NCBI GenBank assembly: GCA_964016885.1
Contig: OZ024763.1
Span: 2,418,001-2,482,000 of the forward strand
DNA: 64,000 bases
Direction: 5' to 3'
Source: Eledone cirrhosa
Taxonomy: Eukaryota
Below the pieces are notes generated by a model. It ran no database searches and had not been told where the DNA came from. It saw only the letters and a program-made list of their open reading frames with translations. This document shows positions 17,324 to 54,325 of this stretch, one piece after another. Within the stretch, counting starts at the first letter, position 1, and each line of letters begins with the position of its first letter. The position numbers and the translations under genes were made by a program.

Positions 17324-17384
17324 AATGATTATAGTTATTGATGATTATGATAATATGTATCATGTTTATATATATATATATATA

Positions 17385-17580
17385 TATTTGAAAAAAGGAA
17401 AAGAATGACTTCACTTGTATTTCTAAACAATTTGATTTAATTTTATATTATAATATTATACCAACACATAATATTATAATATTATAAAATAAAATAAAAT
17501 TGTTTAGAACTACAAGTAAAGTCATTCTTTTCCTTTTTTCAAATATACCTAACTGTACCAAGAATTTCACACATTTTCCA
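17385..17580. mobile_element. AT-rich fold-back element in (TA)n (arms within 17385-17545)
   Basis: tttgaaaaaaggaaaagaatgactt ... aagtcattcttttccttttttcaaa. Confidence 0.7.
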
Positions 17581-17747
17581 ATATATATATATATAATAAT
17601 GAAATTATTGTGTAAAGTGCTCAGGTGCACTACAACTTGTCAATATAGTACATAGAATAATACACAAATGTCAGGGAAGTACATGTGTGTATGTGTTAGC
17701 TGTTCTGTTGGCGGATCTCGGGAAGCATGGAGGACTATATATATATA

Positions 17748-18100
17748 TACGATATTAACAAATGGAAACTATATTTATAAAGAATGCAGCCATTACTGTT
17801 GGAAGCTCCCATTACTCTCTCACTATCTGGGAGCTTCCAACAGTAATGGTTGCATTCTTTAAGGGTATGTCAATATTTATTTATAAAACTGCTCTATATT
17901 ATATTTTATCTGATGAAAGCACACCATAATTTAACTTGGTGTCCTTGAAATATGTATAATGAAATAAATATGGTTTTATAAATATAGTTTCCATTTGTTA
18001 ATATCGTATTTTTACTCCAATTATTTGTTGAGTGCTTTATATCAGTTATAAAAATATTTGCTTGTTGTATCCCAACAATTTAAATGGAACTTTTACATAT
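17748..18100 (+). mobile_element. Family A pLTR with 5' hairpin (17778-17861) and hammerhead (CTGATGA 17910, GAAA 17947)
   Basis: Stem II aag c acacca/tggtgt c ctt; stem I tattttat/atgaaata. Confidence 0.82.
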
Positions 18101-18103
18101 ATC

Positions 18104-18174
<71 letters not shown>

Positions 18175-18312
18175 ATGATATTAAATAAATGGAAACTATA
18201 TTTATAAAACCATATTTATTTTATTATATATATTTCAAAGGTACCAAAATTTGGGTACGCTCTCATCAGATAAAATACAAAGTTTGTTTTATAAATGGTG
18301 ACATACCCAGGA
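18175..18312 (-). mobile_element. Family A pLTR fragment with hammerhead (TCATCAG 18263-18269)
   Basis: Minus strand: tattttat-CTGATGA-gag c gtacc..ggtac c ttt-GAAA-tatata..ataaaata. Confidence 0.78.
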
Positions 18313-19234
18313 AACCAGACCGTATACAGAGAGAAAGAGGGAGAGGGAGAGTAGAGTACAGCATTTGGTTTATGTCAGATGTTGTGACCCTGGATGGACC
18401 AGTACTACCCCAGTTGGTAGGGGTCAAAACTGCCCAAGTCTATCTCAACACCCTGGAGTTTTTGTCCTTCATTTGTATATTTTTTCTTTAAATAATTTTT
18501 TAAGGTTTCCTCTTAAAAAATTGTTTGTCATTTTGTTTTGTTTCCGTTTGTTGTCTTATCATTTCTTTGTTAATTTCCTTAAGTTTATATATATGTGTGT
18601 GTGTGTGTGAGTGTGTGTGTGTGTGAGTGTATGTGTGAATGCGTGTGTGTGAGTGTATAATATAATATAATGAAATTATTGTGTAAAGTGCTCAGGTGCA
18701 CTACAACTCGTCAATATAGTACATAGAATAATACACAAATGTCAGGGAAGTACATGTGTGGATGTGTGTGTGTGTGAGTATGTGTGTATGTGTATGTGTG
18801 TGTGAGTGTGTGTATGTGTGAGTGTGTGTATATGTGTGTGTGTGTATGTGTGAGTGTGTGTGTGTGTATATATGAGTGTGTTGATGATGATGATATATAT
18901 ATATAGAGAGAGAGAGATCAGGATTTTACCAGTTTTAAACTAGTAAGACCATTGTTCAGCAGAGTACTCAATACGTGAAATAGTAGAGTGTAACTATAGT
19001 AGAGAGTTAGGACCCGACAGCTGAGCTCTTGCTGTTTCGACAGCAAATTCAGTCGAGGGGGGGGGGGGGCTTACTCTCTACAATATGTGTGCCTGCGTGT
19101 GTGTGTGTGTGTATGTGTGTCTGTGTGTGTAAGTGTATATCTATATATGTGTTTGTGTGTGTCTCATTTGTCATTAAAGATTACAAACCAGAAAACTGTT
19201 CTCATTAGTCATTAATCGAGTCATTAAATCTTTA

Positions 19235-20492: not shown

Positions 20493-20909
20493 TATTCTTT
20501 CATCCTTACGGGGTCGATAAAATAAAGTACCAGTAATGCACTGGGTAATTGCTGGCCTTGTACCTAACGTATAAACAATTATTATTATTGTCGTTATTGT
20601 TGTTATTACATTGTTTTTTTCTCTCGTGCAATAGCCATATTCGATAACGAGAGGGCAGCCATCATATATTTATATAAATATATATTCATTGAACCTTATA
20701 GGGTGTTATGTTCTTTCCATATACTTTTCACACACACACACTATATATATATGTATCACTTTAGTTTGTCTTTTATTTCTCATTCTATCTTTTGATGAAG
20801 GACCTGTGTCCAAAACGTTAAGACTCTTCTCTTATTATTTCAAGTGTTAAACTAATATATTTCTTCATTCTACTGTGATATCTGCTTTGTTATTTCTGTT
20901 TACATTATG

Positions 20910-20956
<47 letters not shown>

Positions 20957-21073
20957 TTTAGAATGTGAACTTTCTAATTAAATAGCTCTGTTCTATACTA
21001 CATAGAGCACTCTTTTTTCCTTTGCTTTTCCTTCGGAATTACCTAACATATATATATATATATATATATATAC

Positions 21074-21265
21074 ATACAATATGTTGTAAAGGTAACACAC
21101 TAGAGAGAGATACAGTGCGCTATCAATAAAACAGGGCACTGTATCTCTCTCTAGTGTGTTACCGTTTCAACATATTGTATTTTAAAGAGCTCAGGATTCC
21201 CTCTCCTTTGAGCACATTATTTACAGGGAATGACGAGAGTCTATGGCTCCGTTAATGTATCATGA
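21074..21265. mobile_element. Fold-back element in (TA)n (arms ~21074-21118 and ~21135-21180)
   Basis: ggtaacacactagagagagatacagtgc/gcactgtatctctctctagtgtgttacc. Confidence 0.7.
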
Positions 21266-21282
21266 TATATATATATATATAT

Positions 21283-21625
21283 GGAGGCACGTGGCTTAGT
21301 GGTTAGAGCATTGGCCTTGCAATCGAAAGGTTGTGAGTTCAATTCTCAGACCGAGTGATGTTTCCTTGAGCAAGACACTTTATTTCACATTGCTCCAGTT
21401 TACTCAGCTGTAGAAATGAGATGATAGGGCCTGGGGTCCATATCATTCCACTGTAAAGTGGTCGTGGAGGTGCCACGGCAAAAAAGCACCCAGCACTCAC
21501 TGTAAATGAGGTTGGTGTTAGGAAGGGCATCCAGCTGTAGAAATCAAGCCAGAATCAGTTCCCGTCCCACCCTTGCAAGCAGGGAAAAGTGGACGTGAAA
21601 TGAAATGATGATGATGATATGATGA
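21283..21625 (+). mobile_element. Full-length tRNA-derived CORE-like SINE with LINE-type tail ending in (GAT)n
   Basis: tggcttagtgg (A box), gagttcaattc (B box), ccttgagcaagacactt core, ggaagggcatccagctgtagaaa tail. Confidence 0.88.
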
Positions 21626-21652
21626 TATATATAAATATTTATTATAAGACCA

Positions 21653-21875
21653 GATCAAATTTTAAGCAAAGAATCGATGCTTTCACCCATTACAAGATCT
21701 TCTGATGCACAAGATCCGGTAAGGGGTGAAAGCAGCGATACTTTGCTTAACATTTGATATATATTTATAATAAATATGTTCGATATGGGTTTTTATAAAT
21801 ATATATACTTTTATATATATATCATCCTTATCAAGCCCTCTTCCAGATGTTAGTCTTCATATTAATTATTACTAT
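21653..21875. mobile_element. Family E fold-back element (arms within 21653-21760)
   Basis: ttaagcaaagaatcgatgctttcaccc/ggggtgaaagcagcgatactttgcttaa; tail shared with 16235-16280 and 61705-61752. Confidence 0.65.
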
Positions 21876-21939
21876 ATATATATATATATATATACAATAT
21901 ATTAATAAATGGAAACTATATTTATAAAAGCATATTTAT

Positions 21940-22003
21940 TTTATTATACATATTTCAAGGGCAACCAAGGCAAATTATGGTGCGCTTTCATCAGATAAAA
22001 TAC
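21940..22003 (-). ncRNA. Hammerhead ribozyme, family A (sense with the PLE ORF)
   Basis: TCATCAG at 21988-21994; reverse complement of 23704-23770. Confidence 0.8.
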
Positions 22004-23450
22004 AGATTTGTTTTATAAATAAATATTGACATATCCGGAAAAAAGACAACCTTAACGGTTGGAGCTTCCTGGATAGTGGAGATAATATTTTATTGAGGGT
22101 AATACAAAGTTATGAGTAAGTATGCAAATGAGTGTTCGAAAAGTTGAAAAGATAACGGTTTGTTTAAATTAAACTGTTGGAAGAGGAGGATATGTAAGGG
22201 AGAGAGAGAAAAAAAGAAAAAAGAAAAGGAAGGAGAAAGAGAGAAGAGAAAAGAAAGAACGATTATACATAGTGATATTGAAGAAAGTCAGAATGAATGA
22301 AGAAATAAGTTTTAATGGAAAAATATACATAGCGTGAAAGAATAATATTTAGAATATAGGGTTCATTACGTTGTGATTATAATATTTATAATGATAGGTT
22401 GAAAAATTATATTAAAATTAAAAATTAGAAATCAAAATTAAAGATTAAAGATTAAAATTTGCCTTAATATTAAAGATTTAATTTAATAATTTAATATTAA
22501 TATTAAAAATAAAAAATAAAAAAATAAAAATTAAAACAGAAGTATTTATATTATATTAAGATGTATTAGTAATAATATATTGGTTTAGATGTGTATGTTA
22601 CGGATTATAAATTATTTAAATAAATATATAGTATTTTACATTAGAGAAAATCTAGTATAGTTTATTTTATTAAAGTAAGATTGGCAAAATTATATTTATT
22701 AATAGTTGTAAGTTAAAATTTAAACATCCAAATAATTCTAAATTTATGAAAATTTACGAGAGTTTACAAAGGAATAACTACTTATTAAAACTATATTATA
22801 AAAACAGTAAGGAAGTATGAAGGAAGTTAGAAGTGATTTTTTAAGATCTCAAATGATTCCAAGGATTAAATGTTATAAAGTTAAAAATGTTATCTTAAGA
22901 ATATAATTAAAACATAAAACATATGTTATTTTATAAAAAGTCATAAATTTATCTTAAGAATATCATTAAAACATAAACCATAGGTTATTTTATAAGAAGT
23001 CATACTTGCTATAAAGTTTTAAAAATTCATCTTAATATAGTTAAAACAAACCATAGGTTATTCCACATATATATAAAAAAAACTATATATAAAAATCATA
23101 TGTTATCCCACATATATATAAATATTTGGATACATATATTAAAAATGTTTGAAGATATAAAAATATTGGAAGATATGAAAATAATGTTTTTTTCATATCT
23201 TTCAAAGGAACTTTCAAATAATTTTCTAAAACCTTCCGAAAGTTTTTCAAGGAAAATTTTCCTTAAAAGAATTTCAAGTAGTCATATAAAAAAGGTTATA
23301 ATCTATTGATAAGTGTAATAATATATTTATGAGGTAGAGATAATAGAAAGTAAATTAAATATATATGAATCATATAAAGATATAATCTGAAGGATGATGT
23401 TGTAGGTGGTTGGATATAGAAAACATTATGTAAAGGAGATTAACCATATA

Positions 23451-23660
23451 TTACATTTTATATATATATTTAAAAGTTGAGTTTAAACGATGTTTACAAG
23501 AACTAAATAAATTATTTCGCAAATTAATAGAGTTCTTACTTTTTAGTATAAAGAATATTTCTTCAACGCAAAGGGAGCAATTTTTGGATAGAGCCGTGTA
23601 TGAAGGAGCTTTGGAGATAATTTCCCAAAATAAAGAATAGTTAATATTCTTGGATTTTAA
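23451..23660 (-). pseudogene. PLE GIY-YIG endonuclease C-terminal fragment (69 aa + stop)
   Basis: Hand translation LKSKNINYSLFWEIISKAPSYTALSKNCSLCVEEIFFILKSKNSINLRNNLFSSCKHRLNSTFKYIYKM*; W-x-I..Y..CxLC..E..N-x-R..C-x-H pattern as recalled for PLE endonuclease tails. Confidence 0.75.
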
Positions 23661-23703
23661 GTTTTTTTTCCGGGTATGTAATATTTATTTATAAAACAAA
23701 TCT

Positions 23704-23770
23704 GTATTTTATCTGATGAAAGCGCACCATAATTTGCCTTGGTTGCCCTTGAAATATATATAATAAAATA
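23704..23770 (+). ncRNA. Hammerhead ribozyme, family A
   Basis: tattttat-CTGATGA(23713)-aag c gca cca..tgg t tgc c ctt-GAAA(23751)-tatata-TA-ataaaata; 8-bp stem I. Confidence 0.82.
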
Positions 23771-23899
23771 AATATGGTTTTATAAATATAGTTTCCATTT
23801 ATTAATATATTGTGTATTTACTCCACTAATCTGTTGAGTGCTTTATATCAGTTATAAAAATGTTTAAGCTTGTTGAATCCCAACAAATGAAATATAACC

Positions 23900-23968
<69 letters not shown>

Positions 23969-23976
23969 ATATATAT

Positions 23977-24245
23977 ATACAAATAGTGAAAACAATGAAA
24001 TTAAACAAAAAACGGTTAATTCATAGTAAAACTCAAAATAATGAGTTTTACTATGAACTAACCGTTTTTTTTTTGTTTAATTTCATTGTTTTCACTATTT
24101 GTATTTTTGACTCTGTATCCAATGAATTATATCGTTGAAAATTTTGTATTTTAAACTTTGCTTCACGACATCTTCTACATACGGATTACATTGAGTTCTT
24201 TATACGGCTTAGACCCTACCATTGATTGGTGGATTTATCTGTGTA
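23977..24245. mobile_element. Fold-back element (palindrome 23977-24103) with 3' tail; fragment also at ~33612-33665
   Basis: tacaaatagtgaaaacaatgaaattaaac/gtttaatttcattgttttcactatttgta. Confidence 0.7.
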
Positions 24246-24257
24246 TATATATATAAG

Positions 24258-24449
24258 TTTATCTCGGGTTCAATCAGGGGTAACCACAGTAAGTAAGGTA
24301 CTCAATACATAGCAGAGTATAAATATTTAATATAGAAAAGGCTTCTACAGGACTAGAACTGTTTCATTCGGGTGAAGTCATCAGGGCCTTCCTGATGATT
24401 TCTTCCGAAGGAAACAGTTCTAGTCCTGTAGAAGCCTTTTCTATATTAT
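24258..24449. mobile_element. Family B fold-back element with head-to-head hammerheads (TCATCAG 24378, CTGATGA 24392)
   Basis: cttc-CTGATGA-t ttc ttcc gaa g-GAAA-cag ttctagtc ctg-TA-gaag. Confidence 0.8.
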
Positions 24450-24469
24450 ATATATATGCGCATATGTAT

Positions 24470-40664: not shown

Positions 40665-43600
40665 TGCACTGCTTTGTGGTTAGGATGTTTGGCGGAGATG
40701 ATTGTGTGTGGTTCTGTGTGGTTGTGGGTTTGAGTTTGGTTTCCAGTGAAGCACTGTGTCCTTAAGCAAACGGCTATTTGCTTAGAATGTTTGGCCGATG
40801 TAGTTAGGATGTATGGTTGTGGGTTTGAGTTTGGTTTCCAGTGAAGCACTGTATCCTTAAGCAAACAGCTATTTGCTTAGAATGTTTGGCCGATGTAGTT
40901 AGGATGTATGGTTGTGGGTTTGAGTTTGGTTTCCAGTGAAGCATTTGTCCTTTAGCAAATGGCTTTCTGGTTAGAATGTGTCTTTCATTAGAATTACAAT
41001 TGTGAAAGGGTTAGAGCTGAACATTCTAAAACAACCAGGGTTTTTATCATACAAGAGTCAGAGAATAATTTTATGTGGGCTGTATATATATATATATAAG
41101 TTTAATCCTTTACCATTTACATTACTCTATATATGCTATTATATTTTGGTTTCCAGTGAAGCACTGTGTCCTTGAGCAAACAGCTATTTGCTTAGAATGT
41201 TTGGCCAATGTAGTTGGGATGTATGGTTGTGGGTTTGAGTTTGGTTTCCAGTGAAGCACTGTGTCCTTAAGCAAACAGCTATTTGCTTAGAATGTTTGGC
41301 CGATGTAGTTGGGATGTATGGTTGTGGGTTTGAGTTTGGTTTCCAGTGAAGCACTGTGTCCTTAAGCAAACAGCTATTTGCTTAGAATGTTTGGCCGATG
41401 TAGTTGGGATGTATGGTTGTGGGTTTGAGTTTGGTTTCCAGTGAAGCACTGTGTCCTTGAGCAAACAGCTATTTGCTTAGAATGTTTGGCCAATGTAGTT
41501 GGGATGTATGGTTGTGGGTTTGAGTTTGGTTTCCAGTGAAGCACTGTGTCCTTAAGCAAACAGCTATTTCCTTAGAATGTTTGGCCGATGTAGTTGGGAT
41601 GTATGGTTGTGGGTTTGAGTTTGGTTTCCAGTGAAGCACTGTGTCCTTAAGCAAACAGCTATTTGCTTAGAATGTTTGGCCGATGTAGTTGGGATGTATG
41701 GTTGTGGGTTTGAGTTTGGTTTCCAGTGAAGCACTGTGTCCTTAAGCAAACAGCTATTTGCTTAGAATGTTTGGCCAATGTAGTTGGGATGTATGGTTGT
41801 GGGTTTGAGTTTGGTTTCCAGTGAAGCACTGTGTCCTTAAGCAAACAGCTATTTGCTTAGAATGTTTGGCCAATGTAGTTGGGATGTATGGTTGTGGGTT
41901 TGAGTTTGGTTTCCAGTGAAGCACTGTGTCCTTAAGCAAACAGCTATTTGCTTAGAATGTTTGGCCAATGTAGTTGGGATGTATGGTTGTGGGTTTGAGT
42001 TTGGTTTCCAGTGAAGCACTGTGTCCTTAAGCAAACAGCTATTTGCTTAGAATGTTTGGCCAATGTAGTTGGGATGTATGGTTGTGGGTTTGAGTTTGGT
42101 TTCCAGTGAAGCACTGTGTCCTTAAGCAAACAGCTATTTGCTTAGAATGTTTGGCCGATGTAGTTGGGATGTATGGTTGTGGGTTTGAGTTTGGTTTCCA
42201 GTGAAGCACTGTGTCCTTAAGCAAACAGCTATTTGCTTAGAATGTTTGGCCGATGTAGTTGGGATGTATGGTTGTGGGTTTGAGTTTGGTTTCCAGTGAA
42301 GCACTTGTCCTTAAGCAAATGGCTTTGTGGTTAGAATGTTTGGCCGATGTAGTTGGGATGTATGGTTGTGGGTTTGAGTTTGGTTTCCAGTGAAGCACTG
42401 TGTCCTTAAGCAAACGGCTATTTGCTTAGAATGTTTGGCCGATGTAGTTAGGATGTATGGTTGTGGGTTTGAGTTTGGTTTCCAGTGAAGCACTGTATCC
42501 TTAAGCAAACAGCTATTTGCTTAGAATGTTTGGCCGATGTAGTTAGGATGTATGGTTGTGGGTTTGAGTTTGGTTTCCAGTGAAGCATTTGTCCTTTAGC
42601 AAATGGCTTTCTGGTTAGAATGTGTCTTTCATTAGAATTACAATTGTGAAAGGGTTAGAGCTGAACATTCTAAAACAACCAGGGTTTTTATCATACAAGA
42701 GTCAGAGAATAATTTTATGTGGGCTGTATATATATATATATAAGTTTAATCCTTTACCATTTACATTACTCTATATATGCTATTATATTTTGGTTTCCAG
42801 TGAAGCACTGTGTCCTTGAGCAAACAGCTATTTGCTTAGAATGTTTGGCCAATGTAGTTGGGATGTATGGTTGTGGGTTTGAGTTTGGTTTCCAGTGAAG
42901 CACTGTGTCCTTAAGCAAACAGCTATTTGCTTAGAATGTTTGGCCGATGTAGTTGGGATGTATGGTTGTGGGTTTGAGTTTGGTTTCCAGTGAAGCACTG
43001 TGTCCTTAAGCAAACAGCTATTTGCTTAGAATGTTTGGCCGATGTAGTTGGGATGTATGGTTGTGGGTTTGAGTTTGGTTTCCAGTGAAGCACTGTGTCC
43101 TTGAGCAAACAGCTATTTGCTTAGAATGTTTGGCCAATGTAGTTGGGATGTATGGTTGTGGGTTTGAGTTTGGTTTCCAGTGAAGCACTGTGTCCTTAAG
43201 CAAACAGCTATTTCCTTAGAATGTTTGGCCGATGTAGTTGGGATGTATGGTTGTGGGTTTGAGTTTGGTTTCCAGTGAAGCACTGTGTCCTTAAGCAAAC
43301 AGCTATTTGCTTAGAATGTTTGGCCGATGTAGTTGGGATGTATGGTTGTGGGTTTGAGTTTGGTTTCCAGTGAAGCACTGTGTCCTTAAGCAAACAGCTA
43401 TTTGCTTAGAATGTTTGGCCAATGTAGTTGGGATGTATGGTTGTGGGTTTGAGTTTGGTTTCCAGTGAAGCACTGTGTCCTTAAGCAAACAGCTATTTGC
43501 TTAGAATGTTTGGCCAATGTAGTTGGGATGTATGGTTGTGGGTTTGAGTTTGGTTTCCAGTGAAGCACTGTGTCCTTAAGCAAACAGCTATTTGCTTAGA

Positions 43601-44345
43601 ATGTTTGGCCAATGTAGTTGGGATGTATGGTTGTGGGTTTGAGTTTGGTTTCCAGTGAAGCACTGTGTCCTTAAGCAAACAGCTATTTGCTTAGAATGTT
43701 TGGCCAATGTAGTTGGGATGTATGGTTGTGGGTTTGAGTTTGGTTTCCAGTGAAGCACTGTGTCCTTAAGCAAACAGCTATTTGCTTAGAATGTTTGGCC
43801 GATGTAGTTGGGATGTATGGTTGTGGGTTTGAGTTTGGTTTCCAGTGAAGCACTGTGTCCTTAAGCAAACAGCTATTTGCTTAGAATGTTTGGCCGATGT
43901 AGTTGGGATGTATGGTTGTGGGTTTGAGTTTGGTTTCCAGTGAAGCACTTGTCCTTAAGCAAATGGCTTTGTGGTTAGAATGTTTGGCCGATGTAGTTGG
44001 GATGTATGGTTGTGGGTTTGAGTTTGGTTTCCAGTGAAGCACTTGTCCTTTAGCAAATGGCTTTGTGGTTAGAATGTTTGGCCGATGTAGTTATGATGTA
44101 TGGTTGTGAGTTTGAGTTTGGTTTCCAGTGAAGCACTTGTCCTTTAGCAAATGGCTTTGTGGTTAGAATGTTTGGCCGATGTAGTTATGATGTATGGTTG
44201 TGAGTTTGAGTTTGGTTTCCAGTGAAGCACTTGTCCTTAAGCAAATGGCTTTGTGGTTAGAATGTTTAGCCGATGTAGTTATGATGTATGGTTGTGGGTT
44301 TGAATTTGATTTCCAGTGAAGCACTGTATTCTTGAGCAAACGGCT
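40665..44345. repeat. 95-bp satellite derived from a SINE head, with a 1644-bp higher-order duplication
   Basis: ORF track steps of 95 bp; identical spacer ORFs at 40978 and 42622. Confidence 0.95.
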
Positions 44346-44530
44346 TTTTTTAGAAAATTAAGGAAATTTAACTTGTCCTGCTTCCTGTCATTTTACTTTA
44401 TAATATGTATGTGCATGTGTGTGTGTGTGTGTCAAGAACATAAACACACTTTTTTTTCTTCTCTGTTTTTTTTTTGCTTGTTTCCTTAAAGTTTACCATC
44501 ATTCCGTTGGTATACAACTATTATGCAATT

Positions 44531-44700: not shown

Positions 44701-44702
<2 letters not shown>

Positions 44703-44930
44703 CGAAGGACATGTGGTAAGGAACCAGGTGGACATAACGCACCAAAGTACTCAATACTTAGGGTAGTAGAGTGGGTAATAGGAACGAGTAGGACCCCGAC
44801 GGCTGAGCTCAAGCCGTTTCGACGGCTAATTAGGACCCCGACGGCTGAGCTCAAGCCGTTTCGACGGCTAATTCTGGACAGAATTAGCCATCGAAACGGC
44901 TTGAGCTCAGCCGTCGGGGTCCTACTCGTA
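44701..44930. mobile_element. Family I element with internal 42-bp tandem duplication and fold-back
   Basis: taggaccccgacggctgagctcaagccgtttcgacggctaat twice, then its reverse complement. Confidence 0.78.
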
Positions 44931-46006: not shown

Positions 46007-46271
46007 CCAGCAGACCTCAACCATTAAGGTTGTCTTTATGTGGGTATGTCAATATTTATTTATAAAACAAATTTGTATTTTATCTGATGAAAGCGCACCA
46101 TAATTTACCTTGGTTGCCCTTGAAATATATATAATAAAATAATTATGGTTTTATAAATATAGTTTCCATTTATTAATATATTGTATATTTACTCCACTAA
46201 ACTGTTGAGTGCTTTATATCAGTTATAAAATTTTTAAGCTTGTTGAATCCCAACAAATTAAATATAACCTC

Positions 46272-46275
<4 letters not shown>
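46007..46275 (+). mobile_element. Family A pLTR with hammerhead (CTGATGA 46084, GAAA 46122)
   Basis: Near-identical to 23670-23905; (TA)n on both sides. Confidence 0.83.
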
Positions 46276-46629: not shown

Positions 46630-46660
46630 ATGTATATATGTATGTATATATATGTATGTA

Positions 46661-46995
46661 TCATCATTTCATTTTACGTCCGCTTTTCCCTGCTTGCAAG
46701 GGTGGGACGGGAACTGATTCTGGCTTGATTTCTACAGCTGCAGGCCCTTCCTAACACCAACCTCATTTACAGTGAGTGCTGGGTGCTTTTTTGCCGTGGC
46801 ACCTCCACGACCACTTTGCAGTGGAATGATAGGGACCCCAGTCCCTATCATCTCATTTCTACAGCTGAGTAAACTGGAGCAATGTGAAATAAAGTGTCTT
46901 GCTCAAGGAAACAACACATCACCCGGACTGAGAATTGAACTCACAACCTTTCGATTGCAAGCCCAATGCTCTAACCACTAAGCCATGTGCCTCCA
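46661..46995 (-). mobile_element. Full-length CORE-like SINE
   Basis: Reverse complement of 21283-21625. Confidence 0.88.
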
Positions 46996-47014
46996 TTATT
47001 TGTATGTATGTATA

Positions 47015-48030
47015 TATCAGAGCTGTGATCTCTCACATCTGTCCAGTGATTCTTTCTTGAGACAATCTAACCACATGTCCATAAGTATCAGAGCTGTGAT
47101 CTCTCAATTCAGAGAAGTAGCAGCTCTACATGGAGTCACTCTCTGATCTCCGAGCTACAAATCTGTCCAATGATTCTTTCCTGAGACATTCTATCCACAT
47201 GTCCATAGTATCAGAGCTGTGATCTCTCAATTTGGTGAAGTAGAAGCTCTACCTGGAGTCACTCTCTGATCTTTGAGCTACAAATCTGTCCAGTGATTCT
47301 TTCCTGAGACATTCTATCCACATGTCCATAGTATCAGAGCTGTGATCTCTCAATTTGGTGAAGTAGAAGCTCTACCTGGAGTGACTCTCTGATCTCTGAG
47401 CTACAAATCTGTCCTGTGATTCTTTCCTGAGACATTCTAACCACATGTCCATAGTATCTGAGCTGTGATCTCTCAATTTGGTGAAGTGGAAGCTCTACCT
47501 GGAGTGACTCTCTGGTCTCTGAGCTACAAATCTGTCCTGTGATTCTTTCCTGAGACATTCTAACCACAGTCCATAGTATCAGAGCTGTGATCTCTCAATT
47601 CAGAGAAGTAGCGGCTCTACCTGGAGTGACTCTCTGATCTCTGAGCTACAAATCTGTCCAATGATTCTTTCCTGAGACATTCTATCCACATGTCCATAGT
47701 ATCTGAGCTGCGATCTCTCAATTTGGTGAAGTAGAAGCTCTACCTGGAGTGACTCTCTGATCTCTGAGCTACAAATCTGTCCAGTGATTCTTTCCTGAGA
47801 CATCTAACCACATGTCCATAGTATCAGAGCTGTGATCTCTCAATTTGGTGAAGTAGAAGCTCTACCTGGAGTGACTCTCTGATCTCTGAGCTACACTCTC
47901 TCAAGTACCATTACTCCGAAGACCGTTTGGAGGAACCCCGTCTCTGCCACTTGTATTTGCAATCATGTTCAGTCATTATCAAAGATTCCTGACTATAGGT
48001 AAGTCTTGGTACAAATACCAAATTGAAGAT
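47015..48030 (-). mobile_element. RTE-clade LINE fragment with a 123-bp coding segment tandemly amplified ~7x
   Basis: VFVPRLTYSQESLIMTE..IQVAETGFL..SSEIRESLQVE(P/L)LLHQIERSQLRYYGHVDRM resembles the RTE ORF C-terminus. Confidence 0.85.
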
Positions 48031-48460: not shown

Positions 48461-48840
<380 letters not shown>

Positions 48841-49000
48841 GTATGTAAAAGGTAAACAGAAATAACAACACAATCGGTACAGTATATGGAAGGAATATAT
48901 TAGGTCAACGCTTGAAATAGCAGGAAGAGGGTCTTAACGTTTTGTACGCTATATATATATTGTTTACTTGAAGTAGATTTAGTTCAAAGTGTACTCTTCA

Positions 49001-49053
<53 letters not shown>

Positions 49054-49054
49054 G

Positions 49055-49230
49055 TTGTGTGTTAAGTATTTCCGTAGAAAGATAAAAGAGAAAAGAGTGC
49101 TCTATGTATTGTACAGAGCTATTTAATTACATAATACACAACACAATATAATTATTCCATTACCAAAGGTTCCAGGAGACTAGATGATTCTTACAGAAAT
49201 GTCCAGCTCATTCATCAGATGAAATAGTTA
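49055..49230 (-). mobile_element. Family O pLTR with hammerhead-like motif; tail also at ~20972-21050
   Basis: atttcat-CTGATGA-..-gGAA-cctttgg-TA-atggaat. Confidence 0.6.
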
Positions 49231-53439: not shown

Positions 53440-53983
53440 GTGTGTAGGTAACACGGTAAAAACCTCCCAGTCCACACTGTAAACGTGGTTGGTGTTAGGA
53501 AGGGCATCCAGCCGTAGAAAACCCGCCAGACAGTCCTATACGAGCAGGACAACCAATGTTGCCTCAAGTGGGAAAACTGCCGTCCAGACCCATGCAAGCG
53601 TGGAAGATGGACGTTAAACGATGATGATGATGATGATGATATATATATATATGGAGAGAGAGAGAGAGAGAGAAAAGTTGAAATTGGAAATAGCACGGAG
53701 AATATATTTAAGGATCTGTTTTTCTTTTTTTCTTCTTTGATTCGTCAAAGTAACATTATTGAAAAAATGAAAGGGGACAATTCTTTTCAAAAAGGAGTTT
53801 TATAATGTATATAAAATATAACCGGTTTCAATGTATCAGTGAAATCCATCTTATCAAATGTTGAGTATTACAATTAAAAAGAATTAAAACTTAAAGATTT
53901 GAAATTTAGTGTTGAGGGAAGTTTGTTCATCTTTCTTGTTGAGAAGATGACTGGGAAAATGGAATCTTGTATATATATATACA

Positions 53984-54325
53984 AGCACATGGCTTAGTGG
54001 TTAGAGCATTGGCCTTGCAATCGAAAGGTTGTGAGTTCAATTCTCAGACCGGGTGATGTGTTGTTTCCTTGAGCAAGACACTTTATTTCACATTGCTCCA
54101 GTTTACTCAGCTGTAGAAATGAGATGATAGGGACTGGAGTCCCTATCATTCCACTGCAAAGTGGTCGTGGAGATGCCACGGCAAAAAAGCACCCAGCACT
54201 CACTGTAAATGAGGTTGGTGTTAGGAAGGGCATCCAGCTGTAGAAATCAAGCCAGAATCAGTTGCCGTCTCACCCTTGCAAGCAGGGAAAAGTGGACGTA
54301 AAATGAAATGATCATGATGAATGAT
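53984..54325 (+). mobile_element. CORE-like SINE
   Basis: Same as 21283-21625. Confidence 0.88.

Follow-up and report, generated by a model that had tools for sequence, protein, structure and literature searches.

Bulged hairpins and a long spacer in a probable truncated Hydra-clade Penelope-like element of Eledone cirrhosa

Layout of the element

In the window, by which we mean the whole stretch of 64,000 nucleotides of Eledone cirrhosa DNA analyzed here (contig OZ024763.1, positions 2,418,001 to 2,482,000), two runs of TA microsatellite enclose the remnant of an endonuclease gene, a long AT-rich spacer, and two hammerhead-bearing pLTR arms in inverted orientation (Table 1). According to our analysis, 21895-23903 is best explained overall as a non-coding copy, truncated at its 5' end, of a Hydra-clade Penelope-like retroelement (PLE) in a (TA)n microsatellite, an explanation that we consider probable, and the assignment to the Hydra clade is close to certain. 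As DNA, the truncated copy is no more than an ordinary decayed repeat, and its architecture is already known for PLEs; the analysis adds a covarying hairpin, duplicated in RT-bearing relatives, that marks the two element ends, and an unusually long spacer. PLEs carry direct or inverted pLTRs and a tail at one end, and both features are present. The element ends form an inverted repeat of 161 nt (21887-22047 and 23661-23820; identity, 95.7%), and a tail of ~86 nt (23818-23903) is found on the inverted arm, the sense arm being without one. Seven of the 161 positions differ between the arms, so that both may, but need not, derive from a single RNA template. The (TA)11 and (TA)31 flanks agree with the (TA)n insertion reported for Hydra PLEs, which also carry canonical hammerheads (PMC8557442).

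Table 1. Features of the element and of other repeats in the window (positions are those of the window)
Feature	Position	Strand	Remarks
(TA)11 target microsatellite, left flank	21873-21894
Sense pLTR arm, tailless	21895-22047	-	End ~2 nt before the hairpin 1 position
Type I hammerhead, sense arm	21937-22002	-	Sense to the frame; predicted cleavage after 21945
AT-rich non-coding spacer (3' UTR), 1.4 kb	22048-23450	-
Last 69 codons and stop of Hydra-clade GIY-YIG endonuclease	23451-23660	-	CxxC, E, N, CxH
Inversion junction	23655-23661		~5 nt compatible with both arms
Inverted pLTR arm with tail	23661-23903	+
Type I hammerhead, inverted arm	23705-23770	+
Bulged hairpin 1	23820-23842	+	4-bp stem, 2-nt bulge, C-G pair; A-T foot
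(TA)31 target microsatellite, right flank	23904-23965
Family A tailed fragment and inverted pair	1107-1404		Tailed fragment 1107-1222; tailless/tailed pair 1245-1404
Family A inverted pair, tailed/tailless	1461-1856		Sister subfamily; core 87-88% identical
Family A inverted pair and single arm	17740-18296		Tailless/tailed pair 17740-18090; tailless arm 18184-18296; sister subfamily
Family A single tailed arm	46035-46273	+	98% identical over hammerhead core; same subfamily as element
Near-perfect palindromes, 100-170 nt	17383-17547, 21074-21180, 21635-21777, 23977-24104		Beside (TA)n
Family B, second hammerhead pLTR family	29391-29765, 33906-34320		Related to family A; inverted tailed/tailless pairs
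Family C, single tailed arms	20964-21069, 49040-49225		Canonical G-C hairpin
Family D, inverted pairs	1875-2137, 24243-24457		Hammerhead-like core; same bulged hairpin in tail
Family E, short arms in (TA)n	14049-14095, 18957-19049, 33723-33848, 44701-44929, 61135-61371		Apparent hammerhead 3' half and tail hairpin
Further short repeat family	7970-8142, 20774-20943, 48832-48951, 62322-62520		Hammerhead-like core, complete at 62472 (-)
tRNA-headed SINE-like repeat, ~360 nt	21263-21633, 46660-47019, 53970-54334, others		Rfam tRNA matches at 21290-21353 and 46927-46986
Tandem array, 95-nt unit	40668-44355		Includes apparent 1.95-kb duplication

Endonuclease tail and full-length relatives

The sequence-only reading had taken a stop-free stretch of the minus strand for the tail of a PLE GIY-YIG endonuclease, and this holds up. 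The frame runs from 23660 to 23454 (69 codons) and is closed by a stop at 23453-23451. Stop-free runs of such length are common, with 321 segments in the window; the W..Y..CxLC..E..NxR..CxH motif is unique to the fragment among the 1826 six-frame segments. When the window was searched with an HMM of relatives built without the fragment, the fragment scored an E value of 1.2e-17 and the next segment 0.75. The clade can now be named as well, the residues C28-x-x-C31, E34, N46, and C55-x-H57 making up the C-terminal motif of Hydra endonucleases, of which CxxC and CxH have been described as potentially Hydra-specific (Craig et al. 2021, PMC8557442). A glutamate that is near-invariant in the relatives is an asparagine in the window copy. 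A phmmer search with the 69 amino acids gave 772 matches at an E value of ≤1e-3; an unrelated bacterial Ig-repeat protein ranked second among the 150 matches listed. The nearest proteins among those listed are ~53% identical to the fragment. In the ESM Atlas, the fragment fell with eukaryotic clusters named transposase and GIY-YIG fragment (0.94-0.95). Protein searches by word index, in which the fragment was compared with longer proteins and with those near it in length, gave no match.

As many as 141 of the 166 tblastn matches begin at 23660 or 23663, which is the start of the inverted arm. This onset of homology exactly at the arm start indicates that the ORF was cut by the inversion, and an inverted pLTR at a truncated 5' end, as had been read from the letters, is confirmed by it together with the 161-nt inverted repeat. 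The GIY-YIG motif itself and the region upstream have been lost from the window copy, and the fragment matches the C-terminal part of the endonuclease. The domain is C-terminal in the window copy, in which the stop follows the motif, and in the relatives the match ends 4-15 amino acids from the C terminus. The element differs in this from Naiad and Chlamys PLEs, since its endonuclease is C-terminal and not N-terminal and hammerheads are present. Hydra-1_Obim, an octopus family, was considered as the identity of the element and set aside, its hammerhead and endonuclease tail being different in a comparison by eye.

A profile search yielded 299 longer proteins, and the best 120 of these plus two earlier matches were examined. 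Among these 122 relatives, 37 are at least 650 amino acids long, and all 37 carry a YRDD-type RT motif, a linker CxC, YIG, CxxC-E, and N-CxH. Loose patterns recovered the CxCX5C linker in 37/37, a DKT-like motif in 36/37, and an RWK-like motif in 26/37, all in the region that the window copy has lost; a crude pattern for CCHH, which is absent from the Hydra endonuclease, matched one of the 37, likewise in the lost region. Pfam assigned no RT or GIY-YIG family to the fragment, to 21 relatives, or to 46 other open window segments, and a PDB sequence search gave no match for the RT or GIY-YIG of the relatives. Since Pfam names neither domain, one relative was folded. The best matches of its full-protein model (pLDDT 90.7) by VIA-align are telomerase RTs (Z 16.8 and 16.0; for the top one, rmsd 5.2 over 288 aligned residues), and Foldseek ranks DRT9 RTs ahead of telomerase, with both appearing together in its list. 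The model of the C-terminal domain (pLDDT 92.1) matched I-TevI (Z 8.8, rmsd 2.4, 89 aligned), T4 EndoII (7.7), and UvrC (6.2) as ranks 1 to 3; with the endonuclease model, Foldseek found nothing at the E≤0.001 cutoff. Among the proteins collected, P0255, annotated as coming from the pipefish Entelurus aequoreus, has a Hydra-type endonuclease tail, and the Hydra family table in the accessible part of PMC8557442 names no vertebrate host.

Hammerheads of the pLTR arms

The sense hammerhead pLTR noticed earlier was found again, with a type I hammerhead in the sense arm, and at the motif level the element appears to show the hammerhead in sense to the ORF that is expected in a PLE pLTR. In the predicted form, stem I has 8 bp, the cores read CUGAUGA and GAA, and stem III is nearly palindromic. 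A pattern scan recovered 12 hammerheads from the window, of which 11 belong to two repeat families, whereas each of 20 shuffles gave zero. Across nine distinct copies and 12 drawn pairs, 108 of 108 cells are paired, and three of the pairs have changed in both partners; because the same nine copies served to draw the structure, the slid control is lenient. Rfam at its gathering score did not detect the window hammerheads. Free-energy folding was dropped as support since the z-scores of the two arms (-0.5 and -0.8) are not significant. In PMC4209133, PLE hammerheads are described as type I motifs with a short palindromic helix III, proposed to act as dimers; those of the window are likewise type I, with a predicted helix III of 8 nt (3-4 bp) and a stem I of 8 bp. 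Compared by eye with the listed Hydra hammerheads, Hydra-1_Obim included, those of the window stand apart by the 8-bp stem I combined with a long stem II.

Bulged hairpins and element ends

Scanning of metagenome contigs provided 78 Hydra loci (L001 to L078), from the best 80 of 435 confirmed stretches; they represent one sub-clade with families repeated, so that counts made on them are not independent. In these relatives, two bulged hairpins lie in tandem in the 5' UTR, downstream of the hammerhead and upstream of the ORF. Where at least 200 nt precede the ORF start, two hairpins are present in 34 of 46 cases and at least one in 43, at a spacing of 55-74 nt, and the motif does not occur in 99.9 kb of ORF interior. 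In it, a stem of 4 bp is followed by a bulge of 2 nt and by an upper stem that varies. The first base pair of this upper stem, which lies outside the search pattern, is Watson-Crick in 89 of 91 distinct hairpins (64 C-G, 24 T-A, and 1 A-T), a figure reached in 0 of 10,000 permutations, with a statistic that ignores relatedness. The hairpin at 23820-23842 has A-T in place of G-C at its foot, and among the 12 window hairpins, distributed over five families, the foot is A-T in ten and G-C in two, all with a pair above the bulge. Since the hairpin is shared, the pLTR is linked to the Hydra clade without recourse to the protein. With the relaxed hairpin pattern, nine of 19 window matches were dropped (eight in a tandem repeat at 30983-31415 and one at 48614). 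None of the five hairpin-bearing families of the 64-kb window was detected by Rfam.

On inspection by eye, the published Hydra-1_Ajap consensus (supplement of PMC8557442) shows both hairpins at its 5' end, and the words hairpin and stem-loop are absent from the main text and supplement text of that paper as accessible. A published description of the Hydra hairpin or of PLE twin priming was not found in a search mainly outside subscription papers and Repbase. In L001 to L078 and in the window alike, the motif has on its 3' side six bases (AG-YR-CT) that form a perfect or near palindrome in every case, which could let two copies pair or a dimer bind.

Copies end a few bases before hairpin 1 if tailless and before hairpin 2 if tailed. 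In the relatives, ends could be traced in only nine of the 41 hammerhead copies lacking two hairpins. Six of these nine lie 2-4 nt before hairpin 1 or 2 (one of the six being a contig end), and the remaining three lie 12, 24, and 24 nt away, measured against diverged references. Four tailless ends were tested among the window copies, and they precede hairpin 1 by 2, 4, 4, and 9 nt. Hairpin 2 was found in none of the family A copies and is predicted just beyond the tail, whose ~86 nt exceed the 55-74 nt hairpin spacing of the sampled relatives. An ATG in the tail near 23868 was rejected as the ORF start, given that the start codon of the relatives comes after hairpin 2, beyond the tail, and that most family A copies are without this ATG.

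All ten classified inverted pairs combine a tailed with a tailless arm (four in family A and two each in families B, D, and E), an outcome expected about once in a thousand at equal odds per arm; the window families and references were picked by eye, and at least four palindromes lie outside the classified set. The four near-perfect palindromes in Table 1 may be further PLE-derived inverted pairs.

Spacer, copy depth, and short copies

The long AT-rich 3' region of ~1.4 kb that had been pointed out before is present between 22048 and 23450, with an A+T content of 79%, and contains a 59-nt tandem repeat (2.2 copies) and, on its sense strand, no open frame of more than 65 codons. From stop to hammerhead, the distance is 1,456 nt. 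In the relatives, 58 of 81 endonuclease tails have a downstream hammerhead core at 46-515 nt (median, 131), with none beyond 600, and 15 of the 23 tails without one have less than 300 nt of contig left. The window spacer is about three times the longest and about 11 times the median of these distances, and judging from the sequence it is the clearest difference from known Hydra elements. The 27 listed Hydra families have total lengths of 1.1-3.0 kb (PMC8557442), and a full copy of the window family would reach ~3.9 kb if the spacer is native, against generally less than 3 kb for Hydra. On the minus strand, 22176-22260 holds a polypyrimidine tract (near 22200-22260) followed by AG, ~180 nt before the hammerhead, which resembles a splice acceptor below the scan threshold.

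Contigs of two runs from one sample, possibly the one from which the window comes, cover the whole interior of the element at a summed depth of ~1,000-10,800, which is no copy number, single contigs having mostly 5-17. One contig of 290 nt matches 23445-23660 and beyond that point departs from the window sequence for 72 letters. From this depth and from the contig that runs past 23660, we conclude that the interior is a multi-copy unit of which at least one copy continues upstream. From the pLTR into the spacer, the depth steps down from 554,000 to 161,000, 24,000, and then ~1,000-8,000, a pattern predicted by 5' truncation. In a second organism, the pLTR was found with only patches of the interior.

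An autonomous partner had been postulated, and here the outcome is divided. RT motifs are present in all 37 long relatives; on the other hand, protein and word searches, the 78 Hydra loci, and the metagenome contigs yielded no RT-bearing copy of the window family, that is, none with the window pLTR. The pLTR has no DNA match in the 78 loci, the exact 34-nt pLTR pattern has none in the metagenome contigs, and Hydra relatives are absent from viral contigs. We infer a partner for the window element through a link at the level of the clade only.

Over the hammerhead core, the short family A copies share 87-98% identity with the element; the copy at 1245, like the arm at 46035-46273, belongs to the subfamily of the element. 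A low-complexity family A match at 57974 was dropped. The earlier suggestion that the short hairpins are more severely truncated products of the same element stands in part, as they share its pLTR and three of them reach into the spacer adjoining it, but the range of identity and their own compensatory stem changes indicate that some derive from sister subfamilies and not from the exact master.

These observations leave room for two other views of the unit and its short relatives. The spacer may be a captured insertion or a retained intron, and the unit a non-autonomous derivative that starts near the endonuclease tail. A length far above the range of the relatives, the A+T content, and the sense-strand polypyrimidine tract would suit this view, as would the fact that no contig piece spans the whole stretch. 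PLEs are, moreover, reported to retain spliceosomal introns, and in D. virilis an intron ends at hammerhead helix I (PMC4209133). Nevertheless, we hold it to be unlikely, given that in run X1 the spacer (~1,000-10,800) and the endonuclease tail (3,800-9,300) are similar in order of depth, that no joint skipping the spacer is among the joints listed, that the acceptor scan found no site at threshold, and that one contig runs past 23660 with other sequence. Somewhat better placed, if still the less probable option, is the view that the short hairpins are self-standing non-autonomous elements, retrozyme- or SINE-like, that are transcribed and mobilized in trans and are not one-off truncations of long copies; this view is compatible with our best explanation. 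The summed depth of the pLTR, though no copy number, is hundreds of times that of the interior, subfamilies keep compensatory stem changes, four more pLTR-like families in the window are without a coding remnant, and non-autonomous PLE derivatives have been described (bioRxiv 10.64898/2026.07.22.740005, PMC8557442). Against it, the inner breakpoints of the short copies vary, the stepwise fall in depth fits 5' truncation, and the short copies are placed head to head, not in the head-to-tail arrays that define retrozymes (bioRxiv 10.64898/2026.07.22.740005).

Proposed formation of tail and inversion

The formation of PLE tails and inverted ends is described as an open question (PMC8557442, PMC11167929). 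We propose that the RT-endonuclease nicks both strands of the (TA)n target and that one cDNA would start just 5' of each of the tandem hairpins, to which the protein would bind. If begun before hairpin 1, cDNA synthesis would yield the tailless arm of 1,766 nt and halt within the endonuclease domain; if primed from the other target strand and begun before hairpin 2, it would yield the tailed arm of 243 nt. The two cDNAs would then be joined head to head at a short shared sequence of ~5 nt. The short family A hairpins would result from the same reaction stopped earlier, on RNA of the window subfamily or of sister subfamilies. That the hairpins define RT start sites seems probable to us, and for priming on both strands as the cause of the inversion the balance tips slightly in favor. 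The full proposal is more tentative, with chances a little below even: the clade-wide duplicated hairpin would be a protein-binding and start signal and a protein dimer seated on the two hairpins would prime both (TA)n strands, explaining the tail, the inverted pLTR, and the mass of short hairpins in the genome, and the 3' UTR would be native and ~10 times the usual length. For the Poseidon PLE PAc, both target strands are cut and extended in vitro (Frangieh et al. 2024, PMC11167929), RT starts at two internal sites that bound the tail, and a dimer is predicted (PMC11167929).

The same Hydra element could instead have acquired its tail and inversion at the DNA level, through an endonuclease that would resolve a fold-back intermediate on recognizing the motif, be it in DNA or in cDNA, the hairpin then being the mark of a cut site and not of an RT start. 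Craig et al. put the one-sided tail down to endonuclease-mediated resolution (PMC8557442), the endonuclease of Drosophila virilis required tail sequence for recognition, as cited in PMC11167929, every motif variant seen has a perfect or near palindrome in its 3' six bases, and one tailed plus one tailless arm is likewise what this model predicts. We nonetheless judge it improbable, about as much as a captured spacer, since 89 of 91 hairpins pair across the 2-nt bulge, which suggests a folded single strand and not a duplex site, and since RT start sites delimit the tail of the one PLE assayed in vitro (PMC11167929). Inverted terminal repeats and TA flanks would also be expected of a MITE or another DNA transposon bounded by terminal inverted repeats, in which the open frame would be there by chance; we regard this as practically out of the question, as it is refuted by the HMM score of the frame, the covarying hammerheads, and the RT-bearing homologues, and sits badly with the asymmetric tail, the single arms, and the variable truncation.

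Priming from both target strands accounts for 5' inversion in L1 twin priming. The window element differs in that its arms overlap on the template and that two fixed ends are tied to hairpins. Poseidon PAc of Anolis shares with it the AT-rich targets and the hammerhead in the pLTR, but the start sites of PAc lie inside an AC-rich stem-loop 111-118 nt into the ORF, whereas in the Hydra loci the ends lie in the 5' UTR, immediately ahead of one or the other of the duplicated hairpins. Tails measure 30-40 nt in PAc (PMC11167929) against ~55-90 nt in Hydra. Within the Hydra clade of PLEs with a C-terminal endonuclease (EN+), the window family is set apart by its spacer and by the full length this would imply (PMC8557442). 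Non-LTR retrozymes are, like the window short copies, short non-coding hammerhead derivatives of PLE pLTRs (bioRxiv 10.64898/2026.07.22.740005); retrozymes are head-to-tail tandem units, and nowhere in the window did we find two or more such units each with a hammerhead, its short copies being single arms or head-to-head pairs.

If our reading is right, the hairpin, at 20-28 nt in length and 2-9 nt beyond the element ends, would be a precise cis-signal with which the origin of PLE tails and inversions becomes testable, and which could serve to steer a PLE RT to a chosen RNA. It would also be a DNA-level marker that places short non-coding hairpin repeats in the Hydra clade.

Other repeats of the window

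Besides family A, the window contains several repeats that deserve mention, for which coordinates are given in Table 1. The hairpin core of family B agrees with hairpin 2 of locus L004 at 22-23 of 23 nt. Families C, D, and E contribute short arms or pairs with the bulged hairpin, and a further short family has a hammerhead-like core. The tRNA-headed, SINE-like repeat and the tandem array with a 95-nt unit complete the list.
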